This document shows, one piece after another, positions 1-52,585 of a stretch of 64,000 bases of DNA. The stretch is from the NCBI GenBank assembly GCA_963796125.1, contig CAWCKM010000052.1, forward strand, positions 238-64,237, read 5' to 3'. The notes under the pieces were generated by a model, which was given only the letters and a program-made list of their open reading frames with translations, searched no databases and had not been told where the DNA came from. This stretch comes from Nitrospirota bacterium (lineage in GTDB: Bacteria > Nitrospirota > Thermodesulfovibrionia > Thermodesulfovibrionales > SM23-35). The translations under genes and the position numbers were made by a program. The stretch's first letter is position 1; every line of letters starts with the position of its first letter.

Positions 1-2706
1 GCCGCAGCTCCTGCCGATACTCCTCGCCGGAGTAGGCGTCGCCCCGCTCGCCGGCCTCTTCGAAGAGCGCGGCGTCCTCACGTGCAGCCGTTCGATCTCC
101 TCGCGGGTCTCCGTGAAGACGAGTCGGCGGCCTCCGACCCGGGAAGCACCTCGTCCTCCACGCCGATCGACCGGGCGGCCTGCGCGATCTTGCGCTGTAG
201 GCGCTCTTCAAGGCGGAGCAGCGCGTCGAGTTGCCGGTCGGGAAGAAGCAGCGCAGGAAGACGCGGTCGTGGGTGGCTGCCGATCCGGTCGATGCGACCG
301 TGCCGCTGCACGAGCCGCATCGGGTTCCAGGGCAGGTCGTAGTTGATGATGTGCCGGGCCTGCTGGAGGTTGACGCCCTCGGCGAGCACGTCGGTCGCGA
401 CCAGGATGTCGTAGCGGTCCTCGTCGCGCCCGACGGGGCGTCGGTGGTTCGGGGGCGAAGCCCCAGAGCACGTCCGTCTTGTCTGCCCTCGACGCCGGTG
501 ACCGGGCGCAGCCGGCCGCGGTAGCGGACAAGGTCCGGGTCGTCGCTCAGCATGCCGTGCTCCAGGTACGTCGCGGATCCAGTCGACCGTGTCGGCGTAG
601 TAGGTGAAGATGATCACCTTTCGCGTTGTCGCCGACGTGTCTCCGAGCCGATCCCCTCCTCGCGGGCCTCGGCGGCGATCTCGCGAGCTCCTCGGCCAGC
701 GCGGCGCAGCTTCGGGTCGTCGTTGTGCCGGTCGACCTCGCCGGCCTCGGCTGCGAAGCGCGAAGCAGGTCCCGGTCGGCCTCCACGTCGGCCCGCAGCG
801 CCTCCACGTCGTAGGCGCGATGCGCCGTCGAGCGTTTCACCGGTGCAGCGTCGATCCGAGCGCGTCGAGCTCGTCGGAGTCGGTGCGCATCCACTCGGCC
901 AGGGCCTGTCCCGGTGACCACCAGCCCTCGTGTCGAGAAGATCCAGGAAGGCGTCGTGGCTGTCGGCCATCCGCCGGCAGGTGAGGGCGAAGGCGTACGG
1001 AGACGACTCGAACCGCTTCAGGAGCCCCGAGCGCAGCAGGCCGGCGAGCTGCAGATCTCGTAGGCCTCTGACTCTCGGCCAGTGCGCAGGTACTGCGAGG
1101 GCGCGTAGCGGGCGAGGCTCAGGACCGGCGCTCGGCGAGCCTCGGTGCCTCGTGGTCGCACTCGTCCTCGCCGCAGTCCAGGGCGTGGGCGAACCGGTCG
1201 AAGAAGCCCGGCAGCAGCGCCTCGAGGTCGTAGGCGACCCGCGTGCACCACGTGGCTTCGGGAAACGTGATCGCGACCTCGTCGCCGTCGACCATGACGT
1301 GGTCGTTGCGGGTAGTACTGCTTCACGAAGTGGCGGGTGCGGCGCACGGCGACCGCATCGAGGATGTCGAAGAGCTTGTCCGGTGAGAGGTCGTCGGGGT
1401 CGAGGGCCATCGCCTCGGCGAAGTGGTCCCGCAGCGAGCGGATGCCCGGCGTCGGCGAAGGCGGCGTCGTTGCGGATGAAGTAGCCGAGCAGGTAGTAGA
1501 GGTCCCAGAGGCTGTTGTTGACCGGGGTCGCGGTGAGCAGGACGAGGTCCTTGGGCGGCGTGCCCTCGAGCAGCCGGCGCAGGACCCCGGCCCGCTGGGT
1601 GTCCGGGTTGCGGTAGGCCTGCGCCTCGTCGATGACCACCATGGCGTACTCGTCCATGTCGAAGCGCGAGGTGGTCGCCGTCCCCGTCCGGGTTGAGCTG
1701 CCGGTCGTCGGAGAGCTCCTCGTAGGAGACGCACTCGACCCCGAGCTGGTGGCGCAGTCGAGGAAGTGCGCGCCACGGGCCGTCGCGCAGCGCGGCGGGG
1801 CTGACGAGCAGCACGCGCTGGCGGCGCTCCTGCACCGCCTCGCGGATCAGCTCCCCGGCGATGAAGGTCTTGCCCAGGCCGACGCCGTCGGCGACCAGCA
1901 CGCCGTGGTGCTCGGTCGAGGATGCGCTGCGCCCGCCAGACGCCGTCCTGCTGGAAGGTGGTCAGGTGGATGCCGATCGCCGCCTCCGGCTTCCTCCTCC
2001 ACCTCGGCGCCGTACCGCTCGTAGAGCATGCGCAGGTAGATCAGGTAGGGGTTGTGCGGCTCGTAGCGGGCCTCGTAGATGGCCGGCGAGGTCGAAGGGC
2101 GCCGACGCGCTCCCACACGTCGTCGAACCACGCCGCGCACCTGCCGACGACCTGCGGCTGGTACTGCCCCAGGTTCAGCTCGTTGTTGATGGCGAGCCCG
2201 GCGTAGGTGAGGTTCGACGAGCCCGACGATGGCGCCCTCGTCGTTGGTGGTCACGAGGAAGCGTCTTGCCGTGGAGGAAGCCGTCCTCGTAGCGGCGCAC
2301 CTCGACCGCCGTCCGAGCGCGAGCCACGCGATCAGGCGTGCGGCCAGCGCCGTCCGCCTCGAGCGTGAAGCCGAGCAGGTCACGGTCCCGCTCCAGCGTC
2401 CGAGTGTGACCCTCCAGCGCGCCGACGCAGCCGAGCCGCGCTCGATCTCGCTGCGGGTCCGCTCGTCGGGTCGAGGTGGCGGAGCTCGCGCTCGGGCCCA
2501 TCCGGCTCGCGCCCAGCACCAGGCGCACGCTGCGCCACCGTCTCGAGCTCGTCGGCGAGCAGGCCGAAGCCGCCGGGTTGAAGTAGGCGGTGGAGATGGC
2601 CAGCTCGAACGGCTTGGCCCGGCTCGCAAGCAGGAAGCTCGAGATGGCCGTTGATGGCGTCGGCGACGGTCTCGCCGGCACGGTTGACGAGGAACTCGGG
2701 CTTCAT
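1..2706 (-). pseudogene. PLD(HKD)-nuclease domain fused to an SNF2-family helicase. The 3' end runs off the window and the reading frame is broken at least 5 times.
   Basis: Minus-strand pieces: 2175-2681 (AISTAYFNP, FLHGKT HKD-like); 1323-1901 (ADGVGLGKT, motif I); 614-1657 (VVIDEAQAYRN motif II, LLTATPVNN motif III); 78-617 (ATDVLAEGVNLQ, QRHGRIDRIGS motif VI). Positions 1-77 continue in another frame (DAALFEEAGERGDAYSGEEYRQELR). ATG at 2706-2704 is preceded by GAGG. Confidence 0.75.
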
Positions 2707-5700
2707 GCCAGCGACCTCAGCGGTGGAAGTGCTCAGCACGGCATCCAGGCGGGGCTCGTAGTCCCAGCCCACGTGGAAGGTCTCGAAGATCACCCGCACG
2801 TCGGCCTCGTCAAGGCCGTAGAGCAGGGCCACGGCGGCGTCGAGCTCGGCGATCAGGTCGTCCTTCTCCGTCCGGGTCGTCGACGCTCGCCACTGGCACG
2901 CCGACCGCCGTCGCCCAGTCGGCGTAGCGGTCGTCGACGGCCGCCAGACGGCCAGCAACTGTCTCGACCAGCTCGACGGCCAGGGGCTGTCAGCTGCGAC
3001 GGGACTGGGATTGGGAAGCCGTTCAGCAATGTGAAGGTTCAGGTGTAGTCTCGACGAAGCGCCGGGCGTACCAGTCGAGGGGGATCGAGCACAAGCACGC
3101 CGAGGAGAACGCTTCGTGCGCGGTGCAGTCCGCCCAGCGAACAGAAGATAGGGCGCCTTGTGGTTGACAACCACGTCGGGGGGCACGAGAGCGCGATCGA
3201 CGGTGCGACTGTCGGTCGAGCCCGGGCTGACATCGCGGTAAGGCAGATCCGCGGGGCGCGGCACGGCAGCGTGCTGGGGTCTGCAAGCGACCTCGCGGGC
3301 AACCCGCAGAAGGCCGAACTGGCTGTGCTGCTCCTGCTGCAAGCCGCTTCTCCTGCAGGTACCGTGGCAATGTGCGACCGGCTCAGCCCAGGCGTAGTAC
3401 TCGCCGGTGTCCGGATCCCACAGGTCGAAGGACGCCCCCTTGTAGACAGGCCACAGGCCGTCCGTGGACCTCGGGTCGAGAATCATGTGGTCCTTGTCGT
3501 TGGTGGCGTTCAGGTCGCTTGGACGGGCCGCGCGCCCACGGGTCGCTCGTGGAGTCGAACCGGGATGCCGCCGCAGCTTCAGGAACACCTCGGCCGCCTC
3601 CGGCGTCGGGAGTCAGCGGGAAGGCGGCGCCCGTGGACCAGGTCACGAACTCCGGCCACCGGGAACTCGACGGGCTGTCTCGAGCGCCCGGCAGGTACGG
3701 ATGGCGCGTCACCGGAACGGGCCACGATGTGCGACCAGGCCGCACATGCTCGGCGCCCTCTGCGGATCGACGACCAGCCCGATCGTGTACTGGGGCTGGA
3801 CGTCGTCGAAGACCCACTGCCGGTTGTTCAGCAGCAGGGTCACGTCTTCGAAGGCCCCTCGTCCAGCACTGTCTCGCGCCACGGTAGCGCTCCCCGCTGC
3901 CGAGAGGGCCGACCGGGGAAGCACGACACCGATCCGCCCCGCCCTCGCCGACCAGGTGCCAGAAGCGCCAGCAGAACGCCTTGTAGAGATCGGGATCACC
4001 TGTGCCCAGGCCGGGTATAGGGCCCCGTGAGAACCGGCCTCATGCGTCTCAGCCGCTTGCCACCTCCCGTTCGTACTCGGCGACGAGGTCGGGCGTGCCG
4101 GCTCTGAGGCGTGATCGAGCGCGTTCATGCTCTGCCGACGGAAGCGCTCTTCAGCCCGGGAAGCGCAGGGCCCAGAAGCCAGCTCCTCGACATGCAGCTT
4201 CTCCCACGGCGGGTTCCCGACGATGCAGTCGAAGCCCGGCCCGGCGCGCAGGAACACCTCGGGAACGCGACCGGGAAGTGGAGGGCCGTTGAGGCTGCCA
4301 GCCAGCTCCTCGATGCGGCGGCATGGCCGGTCCGGGTCGATCTCGGGCTACCTCGGCCGAGATGTCGATCAGCGGCTCGACCTCGCCGAGCGGGCGGCGA
4401 CCCGAGGTCGAAGAGTAGCGCGGCAGGCTTCGACCGCGTCTCGGGCCGCCTCGGCTGCGCCTCTCGGGCCTCCGTCAATCTCGGCGGCGGTGGCGTCGGA
4501 GATGCGGCCCAGCCGCTCAGGCGGCTCCGGGCCTGCCCAGTTGAGCGGCTCCACGATCTGGTCGCGGGCCAGCGAGAGTCGTCTCCGGCGGGCTTGCTTG
4601 CCCTCCAGCGACTGCCGCCGGCCTCGTCGACGAGTGCCGATGCCCGGTGAGGCTGTTGCCCCAGACCAGGGTGTGGTCGAGGAAGCGCAGAGCGGCAGAG
4701 CCGGGACGAAGGTGTGGATCCAGAGGGCGAGGCGGGCCAGCTCGACGGCGATCGGGTTCAGGTCGACGCCGTAGATGCAGCGGCGGGCGATCTGTCGGCG
4801 CAGCAGGGCGGCCTGCTCGATCTCCGATCCCGGCGGCCAGCTCCCCGAGGCTGTCGAGCGGCGGTCTTGCGCAGCCGCTGCAGCTCGTCGGCGACCCCCG
4901 GGAGCGGGTGCTGGGCCAGGAAGGCGGAGAGGCGCGCCTCGATGTGGTCGACGGCGGCCACCAGGAAGTGGCCGGAGCCCATGGCGATGTCGGCGACCCG
5001 GAAGTCGAAGAAGCGCCTCGGCGGCGGCGTGCCTCGTCCCCGGCGTCGAGCAGCGCCGGCAGCCGGGCGAGGTGGTCGTCGAGCGCCGGCTCCAGGGCGT
5101 GGTCGAGCAGGTGCTCGACGGCGAACGGCTTGGTGAAGTAGGAGCCGGTGGCCTTGCGGGCGCCCGGAGCGGTTGTGCAGGTAGACCGCGCCTGCGGCGC
5201 ACGACGACGGCGTCGCCCTTCTCGGCCGGGATGTAGGTCGCCGTCCTTGTCCAGCGGTGAGGTCGGTCGTGGCGACCGAGCAGGCTCGGACTCGAGCAGA
5301 CCCTCGTAGATGGTGCCGAACTCGCGCACCGAGAGGCTGCGGAAGTCGACCGGCCCGTGCACCTCGCTCCGGCCTGAGATCGACGAGGAGCCGGCGAGCA
5401 GCGCCGGCCCGAACTCGGCGTTGGTCAGCGTCCAGCGCCGGCGATGCGGCCGCCGACCGGGCTGACCTCCGGGTCGGCGCTGAACGAGGCCGCCGTCGTA
5501 GGCGGGCACGCCCCAGTCGCGGTTGCCGTGGTCGACGGCCCGGACAGAGCTGCTGCACCTGATCCCAGTCCGAGGTGGCCGCCGGGTCCGAGGTGGAGCT
5601 GCCCCTCGTTGGCCAGGTCGGCCAGCTCCTGGGCCAGGGTCTTCAGGGCGTGGCGCCGGTAAGTCCCGTTCGGACCGGTAGGGCAGGAGTCCCTTGTCCT

Positions 5701-6691
5701 CGGCGTAGGCGATGAAGAGGAGCCGGAAGAGGATGACCAGGGCCGTCTCGTACAGGTGCGGCGCAGGTCGCTCGCCGGACCGGCGCTCCCGGCCGCGGTG
5801 CGGCGGCGACCGCCGTGGCCAGGGCGGGCACGACCTCGTTGTAGACGCGCTCCCGGAGCCGCTCGGCGAGGCCCGGTCGCCGCAGTCTCGAGACGCTCGA
5901 GGATCTGCTCGAAGCGTGCCCCCGGGAGCAGCGCCTCGGCGCCGAAGAGCAGCGGCAGATAGCCGGCCGGTCGTCGGGAAGCAAGGTCAGGTTGGCCTCG
6001 ACGAAGGTCTCGGCTCGGCCCTTCCGCCCCACCCCCGGTGCCGGGCCGCGTACACCCTGATCTGCGCACCCCGGGTCAGCACCACGTAGGGAAGCTGCTG
6101 CACGGTCGGCCAGCTCCAGGGCATGGGAGATCGGACTGGCCCCGCCGAAGCGGCCCGACAGGCCGTCGGGGGTCTCGTGCTCCTCCAGGAACACCGCCAC
6201 CGCCGCCCGGGTTCCCGCGCCCCGCACCCGCAGCACCGAGCGAGGACACGCCTAGGGTGTGATGTCGAAGCCGAGCGCCCGTACCAGCGCCTTCCCCTCA
6301 GGTGAAGGACCTCCGGCCCCGGGCAGCCGACCGCGCCCACCCGGCCAGAGCGGGCACCCCTCCCGCAGCTAGTGGGTGGAAGAACATGCCCGAGTTGCTG
6401 GACGCCGGGGAGCTCCGGCGCTCCACCTCGACCAGGGCGTCGTGATGAACGCTGATGGCGCTGATGACGGATCAGGCTCGCCGAGGGCCGCCCGGGCCGT
6501 CCGCTCCCTCTGGCCCCGGTCGGCATCCACCACCAGCGGGGTCCTCACCGAGCGGGCCACACAACGCCACCCGTCGCCAGGGGCGGTCCCGTACAGCACC
6601 ACCAGCAGCAGCGGGGCAGGCCGGTTCCCCGACGGCGCTTCCACAGGTGGCGCACCTCACTCACATTCGGGCGGGAGCCGGTGGCGGCCAC
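2707..6691 (-). pseudogene. Very large N6-adenine DNA methyltransferase (type IIG / PglX / DrmMI-like architecture), multiply frameshifted.
   Basis: Minus-strand pieces carry FDFRVADIAMGSGHFLVAAVDH (SAM motif I, about 4959-4992), CIYGVDLNPIAVELARLALWIH (about 4712-4775), CIVGNPPWEKL (catalytic NPPW, about 4198-4230), and an N-terminal ILFRLLFIAYAEDKGLLPY-type helix (about 5690-5750). The C-terminal region lies in 2380-3588. Candidate GTG start at 6691 with GAGG 5 nt upstream. Confidence 0.7.
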
Positions 6692-6775
6692 CGCCACCTC
6701 GACGGGCAGGAAGTTTCAAATGGGGTCCCCTCACATAAGAGTCCAGACCTATCAAGGATGAGGCCACAACAGTCT

Positions 6776-7597
6776 CTAAGAGATCGGGTTGCGTAAAGTT
6801 GTCGGCAATGACCAGCATTGGGCTATTTTGTATGCATCCTTCAAGAGACCGCCAAGGCCAAGAGGGTCATCCGTGATCCAGTTTTTTCCTGTGCAAATCC
6901 TTGCAATATCGGCAATCTCCGCACTGAGGTCCGCCCCTGCTGATTGCCACGAATATTTGCGCGCAGTTACATGAAGCTCGCTGTATGTGATCAAACCATC
7001 GAGAGGATCATGCTGGCCCATGGATGTCACAAGGGGATATGAGAGGTCAATGCTCATCTTCCAGTAAATGCGCTTTTGCCCTCCGCCTTTTGGACTGTAG
7101 GTAAACCTGGCATGGGCCGTCTTTGCAAGCTCTATCGCCCACTTGTTGTAGGTTGGATCCCTTGTGACCTGGCTCATACGATTGAGGGCATGCATCCATT
7201 GAGTCAGGTAATGATAATACTGCCCGTCCCGGTCCCATTCCAACTGCTCATCAAAGGGGTCCTCCGGCCTCCGTTCATTCATCTCTTTGCCGATCCTCAG
7301 ACCGCCTATTGTAGGATGTCTCGCGCCCTCCTGCTCATCGAGGCCGCTGATCCAGCCGGAACGTAAATCGTCAGCACGGTGCCGGCCAAGTACGGCATGC
7401 ACCTGATCAACGAGGAGAGAGGCCAGATGTTTGTAATGCTCGTCGCTCGTTTGACTATAAAGCTCAAGGAAGTTGCATACGGCAAAGGCGTCAGTCCATA
7501 AGTATCTCTGGGGAGAGGGGCTGGCCGGTGAGAGTCTGGTCAACACGGCATATTCCATCATAATTTCACTGACCAAAGGGGTTCTCAGCACGATCAT
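6776..7597 (-). CDS. Conserved hypothetical protein. The C-terminus may be clipped by the compositional junction.
   Basis: Uninterrupted 273-aa ORF with ordinary globular composition (YLWTDAFAVCNFLELY, DRDGQYYHYLTQWMHAL). I recognise no family. Confidence 0.5.
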   Translation of the reverse strand: MIVLRTPLVSEIMMEYAVLTRLSPASPSPQRYLWTDAFAVCNFLELYSQTSDEHYKHLASLLVDQVHAVLGRHRADDLRSGWISGLDEQEGARHPTIGGLRIGKEMNERRPEDPFDEQLEWDRDGQYYHYLTQWMHALNRMSQVTRDPTYNKWAIELAKTAHARFTYSPKGGGQKRIYWKMSIDLSYPLVTSMGQHDPLDGLITYSELHVTARKYSWQSAGADLSAEIADIARICTGKNWITDDPLGLGGLLKDAYKIAQCWSLPTTLRNPIS

Positions 7598-7715: not shown

Positions 7716-9374
7716 TCACCTATTGCTCTCCCGCGGCTTTTCCCGCACCACTTCGCGGGCGGGTTTATCCTCACGCAGCCGCAAAAAAACGGGCTGCCTC
7801 ATGACGCCCTCATCGGTCCAGCCGTGAAAAATAACTTCGCAGACCAGTTCCGGCTTTACCCATGTGACCGGGGTATTGGTCTTCGGCTTTACTTTAAAGG
7901 GGCATTCTTTCTGGATCAGGGGATCCAATTTTTCGCGGATTTCCTTTAGATTTTTCGACCCGAATCCGCCTCCCGAATGGCCGATGTAAATCAACTCGTC
8001 CCCTTCGAATGCGCCTAAGACAAGGCTGCCGAAATATTTTCTGCCTCCTCTCGGTTCTGTGAATCCAGCGATCACGCCCTCCTGCGTGAGCCGCGTCTTC
8101 ACCTTCAGCCACTGCCGGCTCCTTCTGCCCATCCGGTACGCGCTCTGAGAATGTTTTGCCATGATCCCCTCGAGTCCCTTTTCTTTGACGACATTGAAAA
8201 ACAAGACGCCCTCTTTCGATACGTGATCGCTGAATTTTATTTTCGGGGAAGATGGGAGAATCTTTTTCAGGAGTTCTTTTCTCCTGAGCAGGGACAGGTT
8301 CGTCAGATCATGTCCCTGGAAGTACAGGAGATCAAAGACATAGTAGAGCAAATGACCGCTTCCGGATTTTTGGTAATTCTGCATCATCTGGAAATCAGGA
8401 TGTCCCTGATCATCCACTACAACAATTTCGCCGTCCAGGACAGCCTCAAATCTGAATTTCCCCAACGACTCCACAATAGGGGAAAACTTTTTGTTTAACG
8501 AGATATGGTTTCGGGAATAAAGCGAAACGCCTTCGTCCCGGATTTCGGCAATTGCACGGTATCCGTCCCATTTCACCTCAAAGATCCAATCCGGATGATC
8601 AAACGGTTCTTTGACCAGGGTGGCGAGCATCGGTTTTATGTTGAGCGGCATCGGTTTAACCGGCGCGTCCTTCAGGTCTTTGCTTTCCATCGCTTCCCGA
8701 AGACGGATTTGGTTTATTTTTTGTCTGGAAGATTTCTCCGGTTTGGCTTCGAAAACTTCCTCAAGAGTCTTATTGGAAACTACGGAACGACTCTCCTTGA
8801 GAATGTCCTCTGTGATTGCATATCGATCTTTTTTCTTCAAGAGAAGCCACGACTTCTCGTCCATTCGCGTTTTTACCAGCGCGAATTCACCCTGAAGCTT
8901 TTCTCCCTCGAGGATAAATTTCATATTCCCTTTTCTTAATCCGTCCAGAAGGAGTTTCTCGCTTTCTTTTCTATCTCTTGTGGAAGGGTGATGATAAAAG
9001 CCCCTGTCCCAGATGATAACGCTTCCTGCGCCGTAATTGCCCTCCGGAATAACTCCCTCAAAATCTTTGTAATCAAGCGGATGGTCTTCAACCATAATGG
9101 CCAGCCTTTTCAAGGAAGGATTCAGCGAGGGCCCCTTCGGCACGGCCCAGCTCTTAAGTACACCTTTTAGCTCCAGCCTGAGATCATAATGGAGCGCCCG
9201 GGCCGCGTGCTTATGAATAACAAAAATGAGATGTTCCTTCTGCACGTAGGGGGACAGTCCCGATTCTACGACTTCGCTTCGCTCCGTCCGTAAATCCGGG
9301 ACAGTCCCCTCGCCTGGTTTCGGTTCGGGCGTTTTTCCGAATTTCCGTTTAGATTTGTATTCTCTTAGTCCCAT
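7716..9374 (-). CDS. ligD: ATP-dependent DNA ligase LigD with phosphoesterase and ligase domains.
   Basis: N-terminal IHKHAARALHYDLRLE...WAVPKGPS matches the LigD 3'-phosphoesterase signature. EVKWDGYRAIA carries the KxDG adenylation motif. Last gene of the Ku operon. Confidence 0.9.
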   Translation of the reverse strand: MGLREYKSKRKFGKTPEPKPGEGTVPDLRTERSEVVESGLSPYVQKEHLIFVIHKHAARALHYDLRLELKGVLKSWAVPKGPSLNPSLKRLAIMVEDHPLDYKDFEGVIPEGNYGAGSVIIWDRGFYHHPSTRDRKESEKLLLDGLRKGNMKFILEGEKLQGEFALVKTRMDEKSWLLLKKKDRYAITEDILKESRSVVSNKTLEEVFEAKPEKSSRQKINQIRLREAMESKDLKDAPVKPMPLNIKPMLATLVKEPFDHPDWIFEVKWDGYRAIAEIRDEGVSLYSRNHISLNKKFSPIVESLGKFRFEAVLDGEIVVVDDQGHPDFQMMQNYQKSGSGHLLYYVFDLLYFQGHDLTNLSLLRRKELLKKILPSSPKIKFSDHVSKEGVLFFNVVKEKGLEGIMAKHSQSAYRMGRRSRQWLKVKTRLTQEGVIAGFTEPRGGRKYFGSLVLGAFEGDELIYIGHSGGGFGSKNLKEIREKLDPLIQKECPFKVKPKTNTPVTWVKPELVCEVIFHGWTDEGVMRQPVFLRLREDKPAREVVREKPRESNR

Positions 9375-9567
9375 GGATGCTCAGAATAGTATGACCATCA
9401 TAACCTTATATTCCGTCTTATAGGCGGAATAAGACATCATGACCTGCACCCTCATGCTTCCAAGAGGAGCGGGGTATATAGTTCCCTCCTCTTAGGATAG
9501 GAGGCAGTGAAGAGGGATTCCTGATCAGGACTGCAGTGACGACTTAGAGTATACACTAAATATTCCG

Positions 9568-10473
9568 TCATAAGTGAGGGAGCTTCTGTTTTTTCACGAT
9601 TACCTCTTGAAAAAGGTCGCCTTTTTTTTCGGCCCTGCTTACGGCTTCCGAATGCATGACCTGCAGCTTTTCCGGGTCACCAAGCCCGGCTAAATTCTCT
9701 AGTTCCTTCCATACAAGGGGAAACGAAACGATCGGTTTTTCACGGGCCCGCAAGGAATAAACGCAGATCATCGTCTTTGAAGAGTCGTTTTGAGACCAGT
9801 TGATAAAAACCTTTGCTTTCCGGTATTCCTTCGCCATTTTTGCGGTCACCAGATCCGGATAATTTTTCTGCATGATTCCTGCCACGGCTTTTGAAAATTT
9901 CTTGGTATCCTCGAACGTCGTCTCTTTGCGGTTTAAGGGGACATATACATGGAGTCCTTTTTTGCCCGAGGTTTTTACATAGCTTGTAAGATGCAACTGG
10001 GAGAGCAGGTCCCGAAGTATCAGCGCCACACGGGCACAATTTAGAATGTTTGCCTGTTCCCCGGGGTCCAGATCAAAGACCATGAAATCGGGCGTTTCAG
10101 GGGAACTGACCCTGGCCAGAGGCAGATGGAGTTCAAGAGACGCAAGGTTCTCCACCCACATCAGCGTTTCCAGATCGTTGACCAGGCAGACCGTCATCCT
10201 CTCTCCATCATCCCGGCGGACCTCCGCCGTTTTCGCCCAGGCCGGACGGTGAGAAGGACAACGCTTCTCGAAAAAGAAATCCTTTTCCACTCCTTCGGGA
10301 TAGCGCTTTAAGGTCAATGCACGGTCTTTCAAATGGGGCAGGATGAACTTTGCAATCCGGCGGTAGTATTCCAGGATGTGGGCCTTCGTGAAACCATAGG
10401 AAGGATAGAGATCCTTTTCAAGGTTGGATAAAGAGAGTCTTCTCCCGGCGATCTCGACAACTTTTCGGCTCAC
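9568..10473 (-). CDS. Stand-alone LigD polymerase/primase domain protein (NHEJ PolDom).
   Basis: LSNLEKDLYPSYGFTKAHILEYYRRIAKFILPHLKDRALTLKRYPEGV...FFEKR is typical of LigD PolDom. The ATGA overlap with the upstream ku stop is 4 nt. Confidence 0.9.
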   Translation of the reverse strand: MSRKVVEIAGRRLSLSNLEKDLYPSYGFTKAHILEYYRRIAKFILPHLKDRALTLKRYPEGVEKDFFFEKRCPSHRPAWAKTAEVRRDDGERMTVCLVNDLETLMWVENLASLELHLPLARVSSPETPDFMVFDLDPGEQANILNCARVALILRDLLSQLHLTSYVKTSGKKGLHVYVPLNRKETTFEDTKKFSKAVAGIMQKNYPDLVTAKMAKEYRKAKVFINWSQNDSSKTMICVYSLRAREKPIVSFPLVWKELENLAGLGDPEKLQVMHSEAVSRAEKKGDLFQEVIVKKQKLPHL

Positions 10474-11297
10474 CGGTTCTTTTTCACTTTGCGCATGCTT
10501 TCCTGCAGAGCGGCGACCAGATCGGCCGGACCTTCCCCTTCTTCCTCGACTTCAGGCGCCTCCACCGGAGCTTTTTCTTTCTCCTTCTTCTTCAGGAGAT
10601 TCATGATCTTCTTCCGGCGCTCGTCCGCATATTTTTCAGGTTTAAAGTCTGCGATCATTTTTTTGATGAATTTTTTCATACGGCTTTTCTCTTCGGGTTC
10701 GATATTTTCTTTTTTCGGTGCGAAATCTTCATCGGGGAGTATTTCTTCGCTGTAATGAAGTGTGATCAGGGCCAGCGCCCCCTCCACGCTTTTGACGGCC
10801 ACGAGATACTCACGGTCCCGCAGCACGAATTTTGCGAGCCCGGCCTTGTTCGTCTGACGCAGCACCTCGACCAGCAGCCGATAAGCTTTTTCGCCTCCTT
10901 TCGCCGGGACGAGATAATATGGGTGATCGTAATAGATCAAGTCCACTTCCTTCATATCGATGAACTCGATGATCTCGATCGTGCGGCTCCGTTCTGGGGA
11001 CAGGGATTCCAATTCCTTGTCCGTCACCACTATATATTTGTCGGGTCCGATTTCATATCCCCTGATAATCTCATTCGACGGGACGATCGTTTCTTCTTCC
11101 GGACAAGACATCCCTCTCGCGAGGGGAGAATAATCCTTGCTGTGGAGCATGCGAAAGGAGACATGGCCGGTACGGACTGCGCTAACCAACTGTACCGGTA
11201 TTGCCACCAGGCTGAAACTGATCGTACCGCTCCATATTCCCTGAAAAGCAGTTTCATCCTTCCGGGGTGAAGACGGATCGGAGCGCGGAGTTTTCAT
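10470..11297 (-). CDS. ku: Ku protein, paralog 2, with a Lys/Glu-rich C-terminal tail.
   Basis: WSGTISFSLVAIPVQLVSA Ku core start. The C-terminal tail contains DLVAALQESM. The start ATG immediately follows the TAA of paralog 1. Confidence 0.9.
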   Translation of the reverse strand: MKTPRSDPSSPRKDETAFQGIWSGTISFSLVAIPVQLVSAVRTGHVSFRMLHSKDYSPLARGMSCPEEETIVPSNEIIRGYEIGPDKYIVVTDKELESLSPERSRTIEIIEFIDMKEVDLIYYDHPYYLVPAKGGEKAYRLLVEVLRQTNKAGLAKFVLRDREYLVAVKSVEGALALITLHYSEEILPDEDFAPKKENIEPEEKSRMKKFIKKMIADFKPEKYADERRKKIMNLLKKKEKEKAPVEAPEVEEEGEGPADLVAALQESMRKVKKNR

Positions 11298-12068
11298 TTA
11301 GGCGACCTTCTTCAGACTCGCTTCAAGGGCCTGAAGCAGCTTATCTGATGCTGTGGGTTTCAAGAGCCTGGGGCGCAGGACCGCAATTTTTTCTCCACGG
11401 GCTTTTTTCTCGATCAAATTTCGGAGCTTTTTCTCATGTTCGTTTACGAATTTCTGGGGCTGAAAAGGGCCGGTTAACTGGTTTATCAAATAACTTCCGA
11501 TTTTCAGCTCTTTTTCAGACAAAGGAGTTTTCTGCAGTTCAAGAGATTTTACCGAAATCACTTCGTCGGCATACCGCAGAGTATTAAGGCGGAGAATCTT
11601 CCCGTTTATCTGCAAGGCCCCGAGATAGGACCGTTTTCTCATGGTCCAGGTGCAGATGCCTTCCACATCCATTTCCTTCAAAGCCCCGACAAGCGCGTTA
11701 TATCCTTTTAGGTTGGTATCCGGCTCCAGATAGTAGACGCGGTCACGGAAAACGGGATCGATCTGTTCGGTCTTGACGAATTCGTGGACTTCTATCGTCC
11801 GGCTGCTTTCAGGAGCGGTTTGGTCGAGTTCCGAAGGATCGACGATGATATATTTGCCATCCTCCAATTCAAACCCTTTCGCCTGCTCTTCCATCGGCAC
11901 AGGTTTTTTCTCATATGCACAAACCATCTGTTGGCGCAATTTCACATGATCACGCTTGTGAAGGAGGTGAAACTGAATCCGCTCTTCCTTAATTGCGGTA
12001 TGCAGCTTCACGGGCACATTCGTATCCCCAAAATGGATATATCCTTTCCAGATCGTTCCTCCTGCCAT
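11298..12068 (-). CDS. ku: Ku protein, paralog 1.
   Basis: WKGYIHFGDTNVPVKLHTA Ku core start and a C-terminal KLLQALEASL motif. GAGGAGG RBS upstream. Confidence 0.9.
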   Translation of the reverse strand: MAGGTIWKGYIHFGDTNVPVKLHTAIKEERIQFHLLHKRDHVKLRQQMVCAYEKKPVPMEEQAKGFELEDGKYIIVDPSELDQTAPESSRTIEVHEFVKTEQIDPVFRDRVYYLEPDTNLKGYNALVGALKEMDVEGICTWTMRKRSYLGALQINGKILRLNTLRYADEVISVKSLELQKTPLSEKELKIGSYLINQLTGPFQPQKFVNEHEKKLRNLIEKKARGEKIAVLRPRLLKPTASDKLLQALEASLKKVA

Positions 12069-12139
12069 TGAAAATCCTCCTCAGTTCTTTTAAGACCAGG
12101 CCATTTGTTTCGTCCTTTTATTGGCCTTACCTATAAGAA

Positions 12140-12169
12140 AAGTATCGCACAAAATGTCCCGCTGTCAAG
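12140..12169 (-). promoter_or_regulatory. Candidate sigma70-type promoter of the ku-ku-ligD operon.
   Basis: On the minus strand: TTGACA (12169-12164), 18-nt spacer, ATACTT (12145-12140), about 70 nt upstream of the ku ATG. Confidence 0.3.
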
Positions 12170-12420
12170 TTTTTTTTGAGAAATTCACAGATCAGGCAAA
12201 AAGATCGCCAGCCCGGACTAATTATATCAGGAGCCGTTTGTATATTTTTCCGACTCAGTCGGTGGACAGGTCTCCGCATGCACCTGTGGCGGAGTGTTGA
12301 GAAGATACAGGAACAGAAGACTTGTGATTATCAAGCAGGTATGACAAAGAGTTGTTTTCATAATTAAGCTATAGCTCTCATGGACTGTTAAAATCTTTTT
12401 TTCATTGTCCTATAATATTT

Positions 12421-14057
12421 TTATGCCTTTTTGATTTCCCTGAACTTTATCAGGAAAGAGGTTCCTTTGCGACTTTCCTGTTCTACTGTTCCACCGAGCT
12501 GGTTTTCTGCCAATTTGCAAATAAGTTTAAAACCCAGGGATTTCGTATGCCTGAAATCCAGCCCCTCTGGTAAGCCAATACCATTATCGCCAATGCGGAG
12601 TTCCACTTCACCGTCGTCTGTAGAGTGGCATTCTATTGTAATTTTACCTTTCCTGCCATCTGGAAAAGCATATTTCAGGGAATTGGACACCAGTTCACTG
12701 ATTATCATTCCGCATGGAGTAATGGTGTCCAGAGACAGGAAAATATCATCAACATCTACTTTCAAAGATATTCTTTCTTTGATTCCCTCATAACTCTTCA
12801 GAGGCGCATGTGCGAAATCCGTGATATAATCCTTGAGATTGACATCGGATAAATCTTTTGCGTTGATACAGTTTCTCATGGACAAGAGCGATTGATTTGA
12901 TTCTATGTTGGACCTCTTTTATTATATTTAATATGTTTTTATCTTCAATGTTTATAGAATGAAGGTCGAGCAGGCTTGAAATTACCTGCAAGTTGTTTTT
13001 TGTCCTGTGGTGGAGCTCGCGCAGAAGTATTTCCTTCTCCCTGAGTGATTTCCTGAGGTGCTCTTCTGCCAGTTTTCGCTCCGTGATGTCAGTGTCTACA
13101 CCCCGATATCCGAGAAAATTACTCTGCTCATCTAACACCGGGGTTCCGCTTGTCTCAAGAAAAACTACATGGCCCATTTTATGTACATTTGCATAAATGA
13201 CATTTTTAAAGGTTGTTTTTTCTCTAAAGGCTGCAAAGACTTCTTCTTTAAGTCTGTTTCATTATGCCTGGTTCAAAGAAATCATAGAAATGTTTCTTTC
13301 CCACAATTTCTTCAGGAGTATAACCAAGTATTTTTTCTACAACATGATTTGAATACGTGTATAAGCCATTTCTGTCTACTTCCCAAATCCATTCACCCGC
13401 ACTTTCAGCTACCTGCTTAAAACGTTCCTCTGCCTTTTTCCGCTCAGTAATTTCCCTGGATACACTTTCTATCATCTGGTTTGTTACTTTCCCCAAAGCT
13501 TTTAAAAGCTCTTCTTGAGGGTTATCAGAAATTCGAGTATTAATGTCACCTTTGGAAACCTTATGCAATACATCAAAATGCTCTGCAAGACCTATGGCAA
13601 ACTCATGAGAAAGATCAACAATTTCTTCGATGTTCTGTGCAGTTACATTAACCAGATGTTTCAGCTTGTTAATTAACTCAATGTTTGAGACCTCAGGTAT
13701 TCTCACTAAAGGGTCTCCGGAAGAAATACTTTTCAACGCCTCGAAAACTTCGGATAAGCCTACGGCCAGCTCTATGCTGATATTTTCCAGTTCCCTGTCT
13801 CTGTCTTCAACAATCTGTTTGTATTCCTTTAACTGTGCACCAAAAACCTCACAGGTATCTCTCATGCTGGGGGTGTCCAGATTCATCTTAAAAGGCTCAC
13901 AATCAATGCACATTTCCATCTTATCTATAAACTTGCCCTGGATTTCATCCCGGCAATGGGTACCTGAAAAAAGCCAGCAGTTGAGGTTTCGTGATTGATA
14001 GGCGGGGCATCCTTTCTTTTTGCACTGAAACATTTCCCAGCATTTTACTTTTTTCAT
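12421..14057 (-). pseudogene. Sensor histidine kinase with a Cys-rich two-CW-like N-terminus, a PAS domain, HisKA_2 and HATPase. Carries two frameshifts.
   Basis: Three ORF pieces: 13248-14057 (MKKVKCWEMFQCKKKGCPAY...NCWLFSGTHC, then PAS EWIWEVDRNGLYTY); 12788-13177 (LHHRTKNNLQVISSLLDL, a HisKA_2 H-box); 12421-12885 (ATPase with DNGIGLP). Frames switch near 13265 and 12860. Confidence 0.75.
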
Positions 14058-14112
14058 TTGTCTATCTCACAGAGTGCTTCTATCCTTTATGAAGACAGGA
14101 ATTTCCTCTCTC

Positions 14113-14337
14113 CTAAAACTGTATCTGTATCCTCTTTCGGTATCCTCCCTCATTCTTTATTGACAGAAGAACTTTATTGAGCCGTTCACACCATACTCGA
14201 ACATCCCGCTCAAAGGTTGGACAATCCCCTATGATCTCCAGAATATCTCCGAGGTTCATGTCTGCTGCCTTCACTGCTATCTTCAGAATCGGCTGAGGGC
14301 ATTTAAGACCAACGGTGTCTAAAATTTCTACTGCCAT
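14113..14337 (-). CDS. TusA/SirA-family sulfur-carrier-like protein.
   Basis: 74 aa with GLKCPQPILK (the CPxP active-site Cys motif of TusA). Confidence 0.8.
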   Translation of the reverse strand: MAVEILDTVGLKCPQPILKIAVKAADMNLGDILEIIGDCPTFERDVRVWCERLNKVLLSIKNEGGYRKRIQIQF

Positions 14338-14579
14338 ATCTTTCCCTCCTTTTGCTTGGCTGTCATACTATTCCTCCCGGAAGATACATAAGCACTGCGG
14401 ATGAATCTGTTGCCCTCCTCTGAAACACTCCGGATATTCTACCTGTATATTCCTGACTATAATCTACACCATTTTGACTTTTTAAGAAAGTCAGAACTAA
14501 AGGAAATACTCAGAAAGTGCTTGAAAATTTCTAAAGTGCATATTTCTGCATATTTTTAAGGTATTACAAAACCTCATGT

Positions 14580-14625
14580 TAGGGGGGGAGGAGCCCCCGG
14601 GGGAGGGGGCCCCTCGGTGGAGGGA
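14580..14625. other. GC-only palindromic block immediately 3' of ftsZ. Possible terminator or G-quadruplex-prone element.
   Basis: AGGGGGGGAGGAGCCCCCGGGGGAGGGGGCCCCTCGGTGGAGGG sits in otherwise roughly 35% GC intergenic DNA and contains the CCCCCGGGGG palindrome. Confidence 0.4.
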
Positions 14626-14627
14626 AC

Positions 14628-15803
14628 TTAAATCTCTTTATGAATCTCTTTGACGGGCTTCCTTAAGAAAGCCGGCATATCTATCGGATCCTCGTAAGAG
14701 ATGATATCTGATGGTGCTGCATTGATGGCGAAGTCACATCTGAGATCCTTTGCCAGAATCCTGTCAGACCCTTTCAGGCTGAAAGGTTCTTTGGAAGGAG
14801 CCCATTTTTTAATCTGAGGCAGTTCTACTTTTTCTTTTTCCTCATGAAAGCCTGTTGCGATTACGGTGATCTTAACCTCATCGTCTATGTCCGGGTCTAT
14901 TACTGCACCGAATATGAGGTTGACCTCTTCGTGTGCAGAATCATAGATATAAGAAGCTGCCTGTTGCACATCATCAAGGGAAAGATGAAGGCCACCAGTA
15001 ATATTGATGAGGATATTCTTTGCACCTTCGATTGTTGATTCTTCAAGGAGAGGATTCGATATAGCCTTTTTCGCTGCCTCAAGAGCTCCGCCTTCTCCTC
15101 TTCCAAATCCACAACCCATAACACCGCGACCTTTCTCTACAATAATCGTCCTCACATCAGCAAAGTCAACATTAATTAATCCTGGGATGACAATAATGTC
15201 AGAAATACCCTGTACCGCCAGTTTCAATACATCATCTGCAATAGCGAAGGACTTCAGAAGCGGTGTTCCCTTTTCAACAACATGGACAATCTTGTCATTC
15301 GGTATAACAATAAAGGTGTCCACATATTTTTTCAGTTCCTTAATACCCTCTTCGGCATTCATGCATCTTACTCTGCCTTCATAGAAAAATGGTTTGGTAA
15401 CAATAGCAACTGTCATAATGCCCATCTCTTTTGCAATTCCGGCAATCACCGGACCTGCACCTGTTCCTGTGCCTCCACCCATGCCGGCTGTTATAAAAAC
15501 CATATCTGAGCTTGCAATGGATTCGATAATTGCATCTCTGTTCTCGATTGCTGCTTCTCTTCCAATCTGGGGGTTTGAACCAGCTCCAAGTCCCCTTGTC
15601 AATTCAGTCCCTATTTGTACCTTGACAGGCGCAAGAGAGGAATAGAGGGCTTGCAGGTCAGTGTTAACGGCAATGAACTCAATTCCCTGGAGGTTTGATG
15701 CAATCATGGTGTTGATTGCGTTACCTCCCGCCCCTCCAACGCCAACTACCTTGATGAGTGCATTCTGACCGCCCCTTACTTCTTCGATCTCAAACATGTA
15801 CAC
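14628..15803 (-). CDS. ftsZ: Cell division GTPase FtsZ.
   Basis: VVGVGGAGGNAINTM and GGGTGTGAGPVIA tubulin signature. Sits at the end of the dcw cluster. Confidence 0.97.
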   Translation of the reverse strand: MYMFEIEEVRGGQNALIKVVGVGGAGGNAINTMIASNLQGIEFIAVNTDLQALYSSLAPVKVQIGTELTRGLGAGSNPQIGREAAIENRDAIIESIASSDMVFITAGMGGGTGTGAGPVIAGIAKEMGIMTVAIVTKPFFYEGRVRCMNAEEGIKELKKYVDTFIVIPNDKIVHVVEKGTPLLKSFAIADDVLKLAVQGISDIIVIPGLINVDFADVRTIIVEKGRGVMGCGFGRGEGGALEAAKKAISNPLLEESTIEGAKNILINITGGLHLSLDDVQQAASYIYDSAHEEVNLIFGAVIDPDIDDEVKITVIATGFHEEKEKVELPQIKKWAPSKEPFSLKGSDRILAKDLRCDFAINAAPSDIISYEDPIDMPAFLRKPVKEIHKEI

Positions 15804-15854
15804 CTCCTTTAAAATTGTGTATTACAAATTAAATTTTTTGCCTTTTTCATGTTT

Positions 15855-17093
15855 TCATGTGCTGATATGTTCTGAGTCTCCATTGCCTTTGAATATTCCT
15901 GCAAACCAGTCTTTCATCTTTCCAAAAATACCTGCGGGATTATTCTCATAGGAGACTTTGGCTGATTCGTTATCAAGGCCGTACAGTGCAAGGCCTACTC
16001 CTGTTGCATATATTGGATTGTTGATATTTCCTCTGCATCCTTTTATGCCGTCGCAAGACCCTATTCTGACCGGCAGTCCCAATGATGCCTCAGCCAGACT
16101 GTCGAAGCCGTCAAGGAGTGAACCTCCGCCACTAAGGACAACTCCTGATAAGGCGATGCTGTAATCAGAGCATAATGAAAGTTCATCCTTTATTAAATCT
16201 ATAAGCTCCTCAGCCCTCGGCTGTAAGATCTCTGCCAGGTGCGTACGGGGTGTTTTCTTTTGTTGTCCTGCCCGGGGAATATCTATCATTTCTTTATCTT
16301 TTATCATGTGTGTCGTTGCACAGCCAAAATCCTTTTTGAGCCTTTCAGCCTCTGCAAAGGGTATCCTGAAGCCAATGGCAATATCGTTTGTAAAATGGTG
16401 TCCTCCAACCGGAATGTTTGCTATGTGCTGCAAAAAGCCATGTTTGTAAAGGGCGATTTCCGTTGTGCCGCCAATGTCTACAAGAGCAACACCGAGTTCC
16501 TTTTCCTCATCGGTTATTGTTGATGCTGCAGAAGCAAGGGCCTCAAAGACTACCTCTATAACCTCAAGCCCGGCCATTTCACAACATTTGAGCAGGTTCT
16601 GTAGTGGAGAGACAGCCCCTGTGATAATATGAACATGTGCTTCCAGCCTGTCACCGGCCATACCAACAGGGTCTTTGATTCCATTCTGTCCGTCGAGGGT
16701 GTAACCCGTTGGAATGAAATGGAGTATTTCTCTATCAAGAGGCATATAGACTGACCTTGCGGACTCTAAAACGCGCTCTACATCCGCAGGGATTACATCC
16801 CTGCTGTTGATTCCAGTTGCGCCATGGCTTCTGATGCCTTTAATATGATTTCCTGTAATGCCAACAAATACTTCTCTGATCTGTGCTCCCGTGGAAGACT
16901 CCGCTTCCTGAACTGCTTTTTTGATTGAATCCACCGTTGGTTCTATATGTATAATCACACCTTTTTTCAGTCCTGTTGAAGGTGCGGTTCCGATACCACG
17001 GATTTCCATTTCACTTCCCGCAACCTCTCCAACAACAGCACAGACCTTTGTTGTGCCTACATCGAGGCCAATGATGATGTTTCCTCTCTTCAA
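15855..17093 (-). CDS. ftsA: Cell division protein FtsA.
   Basis: IIGLDVGTTKVCAVVGE actin-like fold and position between ftsQ and ftsZ. Confidence 0.95.
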   Translation of the reverse strand: MKRGNIIIGLDVGTTKVCAVVGEVAGSEMEIRGIGTAPSTGLKKGVIIHIEPTVDSIKKAVQEAESSTGAQIREVFVGITGNHIKGIRSHGATGINSRDVIPADVERVLESARSVYMPLDREILHFIPTGYTLDGQNGIKDPVGMAGDRLEAHVHIITGAVSPLQNLLKCCEMAGLEVIEVVFEALASAASTITDEEKELGVALVDIGGTTEIALYKHGFLQHIANIPVGGHHFTNDIAIGFRIPFAEAERLKKDFGCATTHMIKDKEMIDIPRAGQQKKTPRTHLAEILQPRAEELIDLIKDELSLCSDYSIALSGVVLSGGGSLLDGFDSLAEASLGLPVRIGSCDGIKGCRGNINNPIYATGVGLALYGLDNESAKVSYENNPAGIFGKMKDWFAGIFKGNGDSEHIST

Positions 17094-17842
17094 CGAATTA
17101 CCTCTTTTATGGGTTTTACAACCACCCTGTTTGCAAATCGCACATCTATATAATCAACGGTTATCTGTCTTCTCTGTATGTCCTCTTCGAGTTCAAGGAG
17201 CCGTTGAAGTTTTTCTTTATAATCTCCCACTCCTACCTTTACAACCATTCCATCTATGACTGATGTAAGTTCCTGGGGCTTTGAGAGGACTATCTCAATT
17301 TGGTCTCTTTCTGAAGACAACCCCATGTCATTCATTGTCTTTGCAAGGGTAAGGGCTTCTGATAAACCTTCTCTCTCCCGGGAGGGATCACCTGTGATTA
17401 TAGGAAGGAAGGGAATGATATTGCCTTTAAGTTCCTCAAGAAGTTCGCCCTTTTCATTAATGATAAACAGATGTCCATTGACATCAAGAAGTGCAAAAGG
17501 GACAACTTCACTTACGGTAACTGACAGGGTATCAGGAAAATCCTTTCTTACACTTACAGACCTGATCCATGGAGATTCGAGCAATTTCTTGCTTACTTTT
17601 TTCCCGGAAAGGGTAATCAGATTTGCATTTCTGCGAACTCCTGAAAGGGCCCTGAGTTCATCAGATGTTAGATGCTTGTTGCCAATAAAGATTACCCTTC
17701 GGACCGGAAAAGCCGATTTTATTTTGATAAAAGCAGCATATACACCTATGACAAGGGCGGAGACAAGCAACAGAGAGACCGTAATGCTTATCAGTAAGCT
17801 GCTCTTATTGTTCTTCTTTTTCTTTACTTTCATCAAGAACAC
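17090..17842 (-). CDS. ftsQ: Cell division protein FtsQ.
   Basis: Single N-terminal TM followed by a POTRA-like region ([17 protein letters not shown]). Position between ddl and ftsA. Confidence 0.8.
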
Positions 17843-18746: not shown

Positions 18747-18863
18747 AGATCAAAAATTAAAAAGAAATCATAAGTTTAAAAGTTTTATTATTCTTTCCAG
18801 AACAATCCATCGTAATAATTTTTAGATTTTGCCCTGTAATTTTTACTTTTTCTCTTTTGCATT

Positions 18864-46381: not shown

Positions 46382-46548
46382 AGCAAATGTAATCTGGATT
46401 TCTTAGTTTTTAATAAAATAATAATTACTAAGGTAGTGCATGTTACTCCTAACGACAATCCACCGAGTGAATATATACTGGCTGTGGTCTATTACTTTCT
46501 TTAACTTGTTTTTATACTTTTCTAAAGAACAATTTTTAAACATGGTTA

Positions 46549-49396: not shown

Positions 49397-49428
49397 AATA
49401 TGAAATTGCACCAAATATTTTTAACATC

Positions 49429-51322: not shown

Positions 51323-51336
51323 ATGCCCCCTTTTGT

Positions 51337-52568: not shown

Positions 52569-52585
52569 TTACCTCATGAGATAAT

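Follow-up and report, generated by a model that had tools for sequence, protein, structure and literature searches.

The window analyzed here is a 64,000-nucleotide stretch of contig CAWCKM010000052.1, from the Nitrospirota assembly GCA_963796125.1. Its first 6,704 positions carry two genes on the minus strand: a large N6-adenine DNA methyltransferase of the Eco57I family and, downstream of it, a helicase-nuclease in which a single phospholipase D (PLD) domain of the HKD type is fused to a Snf2 motor. This copy of the pair is a truncated, error-laden, and probably chimeric fragment that is uninformative by itself, but the coding information of both genes is preserved beneath its frame breaks. 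The features of the block are the following:

2717 to 6704, minus strand: Eco57I-family N6-adenine DNA methyltransferase, residues ∼39 to 1358 (alignment to reference protein P0241, PADLOC)
4204 to 4991, minus strand: catalytic core of the methyltransferase (motif positions)
4959 to 4991, minus strand: S-adenosylmethionine (SAM) motif DIAMGSGHFLV
4720 to 4776, minus strand: helix IYGVDLNPIAVELARLALW
4204 to 4215, minus strand: NPPW catalytic motif
1 to 2706, minus strand: PLD(HKD)-Snf2 helicase-nuclease, start codon ATG at 2704 to 2706 (alignment to reference protein P0001, Pfam, PADLOC)
2194 to 2279, minus strand: HKD region FLHGK ... [GSS]NLTYAGL, with a frameshift inside it (motif positions)
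2265 to 2279, minus strand: HKD motif FLHGK
2194 to 2214, minus strand: NLTYAGL
279 to 1892, minus strand: Snf2 ATPase core (Pfam, motif positions)
1866 to 1892, minus strand: Walker A motif GVGLGKT
1619 to 1636, minus strand: DEAQ (motif II)
1514 to 1537, minus strand: Snf2 motif III
363 to 401, minus strand: Snf2 motif V
279 to 329, minus strand: Snf2 motif VI

Frame corrections were counted with our own frameshift-aware protein-to-DNA alignment, using P0241 as the reference for the methyltransferase and P0001 for the helicase. The methyltransferase aligns with 68.7% identity, 60 frameshifts, and three in-frame stops; two of these stops are internal (near 6252 and 4151), and the third, at 2717 to 2719, is probably the natural stop of the gene. 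Residue ∼39, at window position 6703, is the first to show homology (tblastn and alignment); the 5′ ∼38 codons are absent. The SAM motif and the helix IYGVDLNPIAVELARLALW, 183 nucleotides (nt) apart, lie in different reading frames. Once stitched together, the protein matches Pfam Eco57I (5e-9), the PADLOC model REase_MTase_IIG (PDLC03620; 5.6e-199), and, secondarily, PADLOC DrmMI (2e-55). An intact homolog reaches 907 bits against PDLC03620, with residues 39 to 1350 of 1,353 covering profile positions 41 to 1373 of 1,378, versus 234 bits against the DrmMI models, which match the catalytic core only; PglX models barely match. Motifs, Pfam, and PADLOC thus agree on a gamma-class N6-adenine methyltransferase domain and a C-terminal specificity region within one large protein, as expected of an MmeI-like Type IIG enzyme. 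Searches of Protein Data Bank (PDB) sequences with the methyltransferase, as a single sequence and as a profile, returned only marginal matches to CamA/BsaXI-type methyltransferase cores.

The helicase aligns with 77.5% identity to P0001, with 32 frameshifts and no in-frame stops. The window edge cuts it at about residue 890 of ∼1,110, leaving the 3′ ∼220 codons outside. The stitched protein matches Pfam Helicase_C and SNF2-rel_dom, and PLDc_2 at 25.4 bits, just under the cutoff of 27; in intact homologs PLDc_2 (PF13091) is present, and H143, K145, and N162 are near-invariant among 26 helicase homologs. A structure model of the N-terminal domain of an intact homolog has the fold of the PLD nuclease NucT (Foldseek probability 1.00, TM score 0.6). 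The pattern HxK ... GSxN and the Nuc-like fold therefore place the domain in the PLD/HKD superfamily, the motif in the window being split by a frameshift. The motor matches RapA (2e-11) and RapA/Snf2 proteins among PDB sequences, and the modeled Snf2 core of an intact homolog matches the INO80, SNF2h, and ISW1 folds with probabilities of 0.97 to 0.99. With motifs I, II, III, V, and VI and a Snf2-type fold, it is a Swi2/Snf2 ATPase of helicase superfamily 2 (SF2). No PADLOC model matches the helicase from end to end, and no NCBIfam cutoff is reached. The best match, PADLOC C3a139 HKD+Snf2, gives 175 bits over profile positions 91 to 537 of 948; the stitched protein from the window gives 5e-43 with HKD+Snf2 and 3e-38 with DrmD. 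With NCBIfam DISARM_DrmD the score is 154.6 bits (cutoff, 610), and with the phospholipase D-like anti-phage protein model it is 132 (cutoff, 1,100). Zorya ZorD, DpdE, BrxHII, and Hma/BREX-related (BR) type 1 (with its C-terminal PD-(D/E)xK and TUDOR domains) were rejected as assignments, as they match through the common Snf2 core only.

In the list of open reading frames (ORFs) of the window, positions 1 to 6700 hold no long or intact ORF on either strand. Plus-strand translations resemble antisense, and the motifs, all on the minus strand, are dispersed over the three frames. In a frame plot of GC content at third codon positions (GC3), the coding frame switches every 100 to 300 nt, and a GC3-based Viterbi path through the block requires 65 segments. 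The two genes together hold 92 frameshifts (56 insertions and 36 deletions), or ∼1 per 73 nt and ∼1.4% indels, at 9 to 17 per kb along the entire block. Harsher alignment penalties lower the count over both genes to 63 or 48; intact loci treated in the same way (L003 and L017) give 0 to 1 frameshifts per gene. Correcting the frames raises identity to the best protein relatives from 66% to 77.5% for the helicase and from 57% to 68.7% for the methyltransferase.

Several properties of the block bear on how these breaks arose. The helicase retains 176 of the 178 aligned positions that are invariant among 26 helicases, the methyltransferase retains 135 of the 143 that are invariant among 20 methyltransferases, and GC3 still reaches 0.9 to 1.0 locally, in spite of a host at 43% GC. 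Because the invariant residues are kept and GC3 is high, we attribute the indels to read errors rather than to decay. Indels at ∼1.4% together with ∼3% changed invariant codons are the look of a nearly uncorrected long read, and the quality of the block is about that of a single long read. Homopolymer-driven systematic error was rejected as the cause, since the longest runs at frameshift sites are the same as at random sites (mean 2.45 versus 2.42), with no homopolymer enrichment. Because the best relatives are only 77.5% and 68.7% identical, no near-identical intact copy is at hand to prove the indels directly. An exact 63-mer from the block (window 291 to 353) had no match in 185,579 species-representative genomes, which thus do not include the origin of the high-GC DNA, and a search of 5.8 billion proteins found no close relative.

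The right-hand limit of the block is marked by an abrupt junction, bordered by the following features:

6705 to 6706, no strand: breakpoint between host-like DNA (∼98% identical to the relative contig L085) and 70% GC methyltransferase DNA (DNA alignment, tblastn, 100-nt GC profile)
6705 to 7597, minus strand: conserved hypothetical host gene, residues up to 298 of 392 (homology to P0121, DNA alignment)
7716 to 12068: nonhomologous end joining (NHEJ) set adjoining the junction, with two tandem Ku genes, a LigD primase-polymerase, and a LigD phosphoesterase-ligase, at ∼50% GC

Relatives of the junction gene are 377 to 400 amino acids (aa) long and are labeled as Nitrospirota, Dissulfurispiraceae, or Desulfobacterales metagenome-assembled genomes (MAGs); the closest, P0121 (392 aa), is 95% identical in protein and ∼98% in DNA. 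The gene can be traced to residue 298 at window position 6705, with a 1-nt deletion at ∼6816. In the relative contig it runs 94 codons further, and small unrelated genes come next. At the breakpoint, DNA identity to L085 falls from ∼98% to noise within 1 to 2 bases, and GC drops from 0.74 to 0.50 across about 100 nt in the 100-nt profile. GC content is 69 to 73% over positions 1 to 6700 and 31 to 51% across the remaining window. Two unrelated genes are thus fused mid-ORF, in the same orientation and with zero spacer. Scanning the window for Rfam families and tRNAs gave nothing, and hence no integration landmark; an integrase was absent among the ORFs scanned, and no repeat was found at the junction border. 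Frameshift density changes at the same point, from 1 per 73 nt in the block to 1 per 4.8 kb in the host part, a ∼65-fold step that coincides with the breakpoint.

To the right, from 7.7 kb on, the window is ordinary bacterial chromosome at ∼43% GC. It contains signaling genes and a dcw cluster (ftsZ, ftsA, ftsQ, ddl, murB, murC, murG, ftsW, murD, DD-carboxypeptidase, mraY, murF, murE, and ftsI). The 57 kb to the right of the junction hold 12 frameshifts, the one at ∼6816 in the junction gene included. The gene murD (23589 to 25137, minus strand) is in three pieces, with an in-frame stop at 24115 to 24117 and a frameshift at ∼23960. A PAS/HisKA/HATPase sensor kinase is likewise in three pieces (frameshifts at ∼12850 and ∼13255), rsmH is in two (∼32970), two GGDEF-domain genes are frameshifted (∼38190 and ∼40830), and a ketosynthase cluster has four or five breaks (∼47800, ∼48480, ∼48850, ∼49830, and ∼52205). 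Because even this part carries 1 frameshift per 4.8 kb, essential murD included, the record is a long-read assembly that is error-prone throughout.

The preliminary description of this DNA had claimed a giant adenine methyltransferase followed by a single-HKD PLD-Snf2 fusion, with SAM, helix, NPPW, HKD, and Snf2 motifs. These domains and motifs are real: all the motifs lie on the minus strand, and the stitched proteins match Pfam and PADLOC models for these domains, PLDc_2 just short of its cutoff. The same cannot be said of the two as genes, since neither is an intact ORF, the methyltransferase is truncated at its 5′ end, and the helicase runs beyond the end of the window. The extent of 1 to 6691 needs to be moved to 1 to 6704 (methyltransferase homology starting at ∼6703). 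The frameshifts, which had been treated as a detail to correct, are instead the main fact of the locus, with ∼92 breaks and a breakpoint that truncates two genes.

The family to which the fragment belongs is large. Among 8,000 candidates scored, the two proteins had 3,534 and 3,671 matches, and the family comprises >3,500 protein clusters. Full-length members pair a helicase of about 1,100 to 1,135 aa (PLDc_2, SNF2, and Helicase_C) with an Eco57I methyltransferase of about 1,340 to 1,360 aa. In L001 to L003, for instance, a methyltransferase of 1,353 to 1,357 aa is followed by the PLD-Snf2 gene with a 4-nt overlap, and the flanks vary. A locus survey with one genome per GTDB species yielded about 35 full-length loci, for 33 of which the flanks were clustered over 10 kb on each side. 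These loci come from Acidimicrobiia, Gemmatimonadota, Acidobacteriota, Planctomycetota, Actinomycetota (including Luteimicrobium xylanilyticum and Nonomuraea solani), and Proteobacteria; the closest named relatives of the cassette in the window are from Gemmatimonadota and Acidimicrobiia. Wherever upstream sequence exists (∼33 GTDB genomes and L001 to L003), the methyltransferase precedes the helicase on the same strand. Roughly one locus in three has 0.4 to 6 kb of heterogeneous genes between the two (L008, L010, L015, L020, L029, L031, L034, and L039). These inserts encode VapC/RelE-type toxin-antitoxin pairs, HNH proteins, a 589-aa protein (L015), and a recurring ImmA/IrrE-like plus DUF4411 pair (L020, L029, L031, and L034). 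Inserted genes between members are also a habit of Type I R-M (restriction-modification) operons. No family of flanking ORFs occurs in more than 4 of the 33 loci, and neither DrmA/DrmB nor DUF499 or DUF3780 recurs in the 10-kb flanks of ∼33 loci. Because no third gene recurs, we regard the pair as autonomous. The domains, the conservation of the motifs, and the strict linkage of the genes are direct observations.

Copies of the same pair are carried on plasmids of Rhodococcus, Mycobacterium, Euzebya, and Halorubrum. Among these are the intact pairs of pCRE138 (WP_029257062 and WP_338051105), of the Mycobacterium gallinarum plasmid NZ_AP022602, and of the Halorubrum lacusprofundi plasmid NC_012030. 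In cultured strains these plasmid copies are annotated at NCBI just as "hypothetical protein" and "helicase-related protein"; the one on pCRE138 (Rhodococcus erythropolis R138) is flanked by TetR and hypothetical genes. Some further observations concern individual loci. The cassette in L003 (Gemmatimonadota) sits between Ku (2776 to 3672) and LigD (15711 to 18320), with a PIN toxin also flanking it. NHEJ genes thus stand beside both this cassette and the junction in the window; the association was not seen in the other ∼30 loci, and the proximity is probably a coincidence. L001 (1 to 23315) resembles a defense island, with LmuB_C and CTD7 domain genes upstream and, downstream, a gene for a NERD and UvrD helicase and one for an 1,808-aa DEAD, Helicase_C, and MZB (DUF1998) protein. 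Distant HKD-Snf2 relatives (25 to 28% identity) occur in L046 (Leptospira, 9962 to 16938) and L048 (Salinibaculum, 9935 to 19411), paired with an Eco57I-like methyltransferase of ∼1,000 to 1,200 aa, either helicase first or convergent. In the long-read MAGs L006, L019, and L037, the family methyltransferase is found in 2 to 9 tblastn pieces, and assemblies of this type may often carry frameshift errors in genes of high GC content.

The preliminary description had also presented the pair as a DISARM-like compact variant outside known systems. The architecture is not new, being both cataloged (PDLC03620) and published: orf33 and orf34 of plasmid pLd8 from Lactococcus lactis FM03P have the same two-gene architecture (van Mastrigt et al. 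2018, PMC6098607). There, the methyltransferase is Type IIG according to REBASE and has no restriction domain, its neighbor is a PLD, SNF2, and Helicase_C protein, and the authors compared the pair with class 1 DISARM (PMC6098607). The Firmicute helicases are only about 25% identical to those of the present family (H15), and the copy in the window is, in addition, truncated and frameshifted. No experimental study of the two-gene form was found in the literature searched.

The HKD-SF2 and N6-methyltransferase core is also shared with Gao_RL, that is, MANTIS or BR type 2 (PMC12839542; bioRxiv 10.64898/2026.09.23.753747). Like MANTIS, the pair in the window combines a specificity-bearing N6-adenine methyltransferase with a single-HKD PLD domain fused to an SF2 helicase-like ATPase, and MtsD of MANTIS is the nearest characterized relative of the window helicase. 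MtsD forms a dimer that has one PLD active site and resembles SauUSI in structure. In MANTIS, both methylation and restriction depend on MtsA, a DUF499 AAA+ ATPase, and on the small protein MtsB; the domain of MtsB is numbered DUF3780 in one source (PMC12839542) and DUF3870 in the MANTIS preprint (bioRxiv 10.64898/2026.09.23.753747). In contrast, genes for DUF499 (MtsA) and MtsB are absent from ∼33 loci of the window family (Pfam annotation of L001 to L003 included), the methyltransferase is much larger and of the Eco57I type, and the HKD+Snf2 profile is matched over half its length.

Class 1 DISARM shares with the pair a PLD nuclease, an SNF2 helicase, and a large adenine methyltransferase, along with secondary DrmMI and DrmD HMM (hidden Markov model) matches, so that the parts list in the preliminary description does overlap. 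It fails, however, at the level of families. DrmC is a separate PLD protein, whereas here PLD is fused to the N terminus of the Snf2 helicase; DrmA and DrmB (DUF1998/MZB) are missing, not only from the window, as had been stated, but from the ∼33 intact related loci as well; and the Type IIG model fits the methyltransferase four times better than DrmMI (907 versus 234 bits), with DrmD at 155 bits versus its cutoff of 610. The label DISARM-like therefore lacks support and is no more than loosely right. The likely logic of the pair is shared with Type III and Type ISP enzymes (EcoP15I; LlaGI/LlaBIII): a methyltransferase bearing its own target recognition region would mark an asymmetric site, and unmodified sites would serve to load an SF2 ATPase-nuclease that communicates along the DNA. 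These enzymes employ a PD-(D/E)xK or Mrr nuclease, whereas the present family has a metal-independent HKD/PLD nuclease and a Snf2-type motor on two polypeptides of ∼1,350 and ∼1,110 aa, and no sequence-level membership was found. A single dimerizing HKD domain is also present in Nuc, NucT, and BfiI and in the Type IV enzyme SauUSI, where it is fused to an ATP-driven helicase. SauUSI differs in acting on modified DNA via its own target recognition domain, with no cognate methyltransferase. As the helicase of the window family is strictly linked to a methyltransferase, unmodified DNA is its implied target.

By analogy with these systems, the ∼1,350-aa methyltransferase would use its own C-terminal region to recognize a short site, probably an asymmetric one, and methylate host adenine. 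A single HKD copy must, on the same analogy, imply a dimer, and the Snf2 partner would accordingly dimerize to form one PLD active site, in the manner of Nuc/NucT, BfiI, SauUSI, and MtsD. The motor would drive ATP-dependent translocation on double-stranded DNA, and the dimer would cut DNA with unmethylated sites, where the partner is probably recruited by the bound methyltransferase. Overall, this would amount to a split enzyme of the Type ISP/Type III kind, with a PLD nuclease replacing PD-(D/E)xK. The direction of recruitment, the dimerization, and the site rules are all drawn from characterized relatives. We lean modestly toward the view that the family is a class of ATP-dependent R-M in which a nuclease-less methyltransferase hands over unmethylated sites and a dimeric motor nuclease of the HKD-Snf2 type receives them. 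The database label Type IIG probably misstates where the nuclease is located.

As to how the block came to lie in this contig, a functional pair with intact ORFs, a start, a promoter, and a native replicon is not what the window contains, given the ∼92 frameshifts, the 5′ loss, and the breakpoint within a host gene. Because both genes at the junction are truncated, GC steps sharply, and frameshifts rise ∼65-fold, we judge from the sequence that the first 6.7 kb are quite likely a chimeric or very low-coverage tail. The join would most likely be a chimeric read or an assembly artifact at a poorly covered contig end, and the genes would be intact in their true source and foreign to this host. 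The full account, in which the block is an artifactually joined fragment of an autonomous two-gene R-M-like cassette from a ∼70% GC bacterium, working as proposed above, is in our estimate likely. Alternatively, the junction could be real, a 70% GC island having recently been inserted into the 392-codon host gene by illegitimate recombination, with indels that are long-read errors left unpolished where short-read coverage collapses at 70% GC. Defense cassettes of this family are mobile and found on plasmids, and the long-read-type frameshifts throughout the record make polishing-driven differences in error rate possible. Nevertheless, we consider this unlikely: a methyltransferase without a start and promoter, a host gene without 94 codons, and zero spacer are unlike the usual integration of an island or mobile element; no tRNA, integrase, or repeat marks the border; the 65-fold error step and the even, non-homopolymer indels fit ∼1× coverage better than GC-biased polishing; and the 31 to 36% GC stretch of the window, at the other extreme of composition, holds only a handful of frameshifts. 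That the genes are decaying pseudogenes, an old horizontally acquired module under erosion, might be read from the roughly 90 frameshifts, the two internal stops, and the truncated 5′ end. Ninety neutral indels, however, should come with several hundred substitutions, and 311 of 321 invariant residues are intact; GC3 of 0.9 to 1.0 persists within a 43% GC genome; and the frameshifted essential host gene murD points to sequencing error in the record. We regard such decay as very unlikely.

The artifactual origin of this copy being preferred, the alternatives that remain concern the nature of the cassette. The visible genes could be part of a class 1 DISARM or MANTIS/BR type 2 system whose other genes lie left of the window, as the helicase does run past the edge into unseen downstream sequence and secondary PADLOC matches exist (DrmMI 2e-55, DrmD 3e-38, and HKD+Snf2). 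This is very doubtful in view of the ∼33 orthologous loci, where 10 kb per side holds no gene family shared by more than 4 of them; the L003 and pCRE138 copies have unrelated flanks, the DrmD and DrmMI scores are far under family cutoffs, and the DEAD and MZB (DUF1998) gene of L001 is 9 kb off with four unrelated genes between, which looks like a defense-island neighborhood. It is also rather improbable that the methyltransferase is a self-sufficient Type IIG enzyme with an N-terminal nuclease, the PLD-Snf2 protein being an accessory or else an independent Type IV-like enzyme in the manner of SauUSI. PADLOC and REBASE do place the methyltransferase family under Type IIG, and SauUSI-type PLD-helicases work alone on modified DNA. 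The first 600 residues of the methyltransferase gave a confident AlphaFold2 model (mean pLDDT of 84.7), whose faint matches to Hjc-like proteins (PD-(D/E)xK fold) would favor this option; all fold matches to PDB entries, however, miss E ≤ 1e-3, and alignments of 20 and 14 homologs show no invariant D...(D/E)xK triad within the N-terminal 300 residues. Moreover, the genes show strict linkage and a common orientation, often overlapping by 4 nt, the helicase has no recognizable target recognition domain, and the authors of the 2018 study likewise found no restriction domain in the methyltransferase (PMC6098607). Certain points still tell against the readings we prefer. The N-terminal 300 residues of the methyltransferase, lacking a clear structural match, may yet harbor a nuclease of their own. 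The conservation profile along the protein shows no sharply hypervariable target recognition region (the minimum is 0.41, at residues 1001 to 1050). MANTIS needs MtsA and MtsB for methylation, and the analogy to a two-gene system may therefore fail. Finally, a real and very recent illegitimate insertion that escaped polishing owing to its GC content may look the same as a chimera, and the indel 111 nt from the junction in the host gene fits a low-coverage end but is no proof of one.

Elsewhere in the window, three host features deserve mention. Positions 44000 to 54000 hold a low-GC (31 to 37%) fatty-acid/polyketide-like cluster with several ketosynthases, FabZ-like, acyl carrier protein-like, and FAD amine-oxidase-like genes, and a short-chain dehydrogenase/reductase; its composition is unlike that of the 43% GC dcw region. 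A D-alanyl-D-alanine carboxypeptidase (Peptidase_S11; 25073 to 26182, minus strand) occupies an unusual place within the dcw cluster, with mraY and murD as its neighbors. At 34839 to 37463 (minus strand), an 875-aa protein combines DHH/DHHA1 and two CBS domains with a poly(A) polymerase/CCA-adding head that carries an RNA-binding domain.

For quality control, the locus illustrates how a 6.7-kb foreign, error-laden tail could pass for a defense-system transfer or a pseudogene pair in a Nitrospirota/Desulfobacterota-like genome, and the whole record needs polishing, as frameshifts in host genes such as murD and rsmH make plain. The biological value lies in the abundant autonomous family rather than in the copy in the window. 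That family is spread across Actinomycetota, Gemmatimonadota, Acidobacteriota, Planctomycetota, Proteobacteria, and haloarchaeal plasmids, and the 2026 work on MANTIS makes it a timely question how a two-gene relative copes without an AAA+ loader. If the proposed mechanism is true, the family would do with two proteins what takes MANTIS four.

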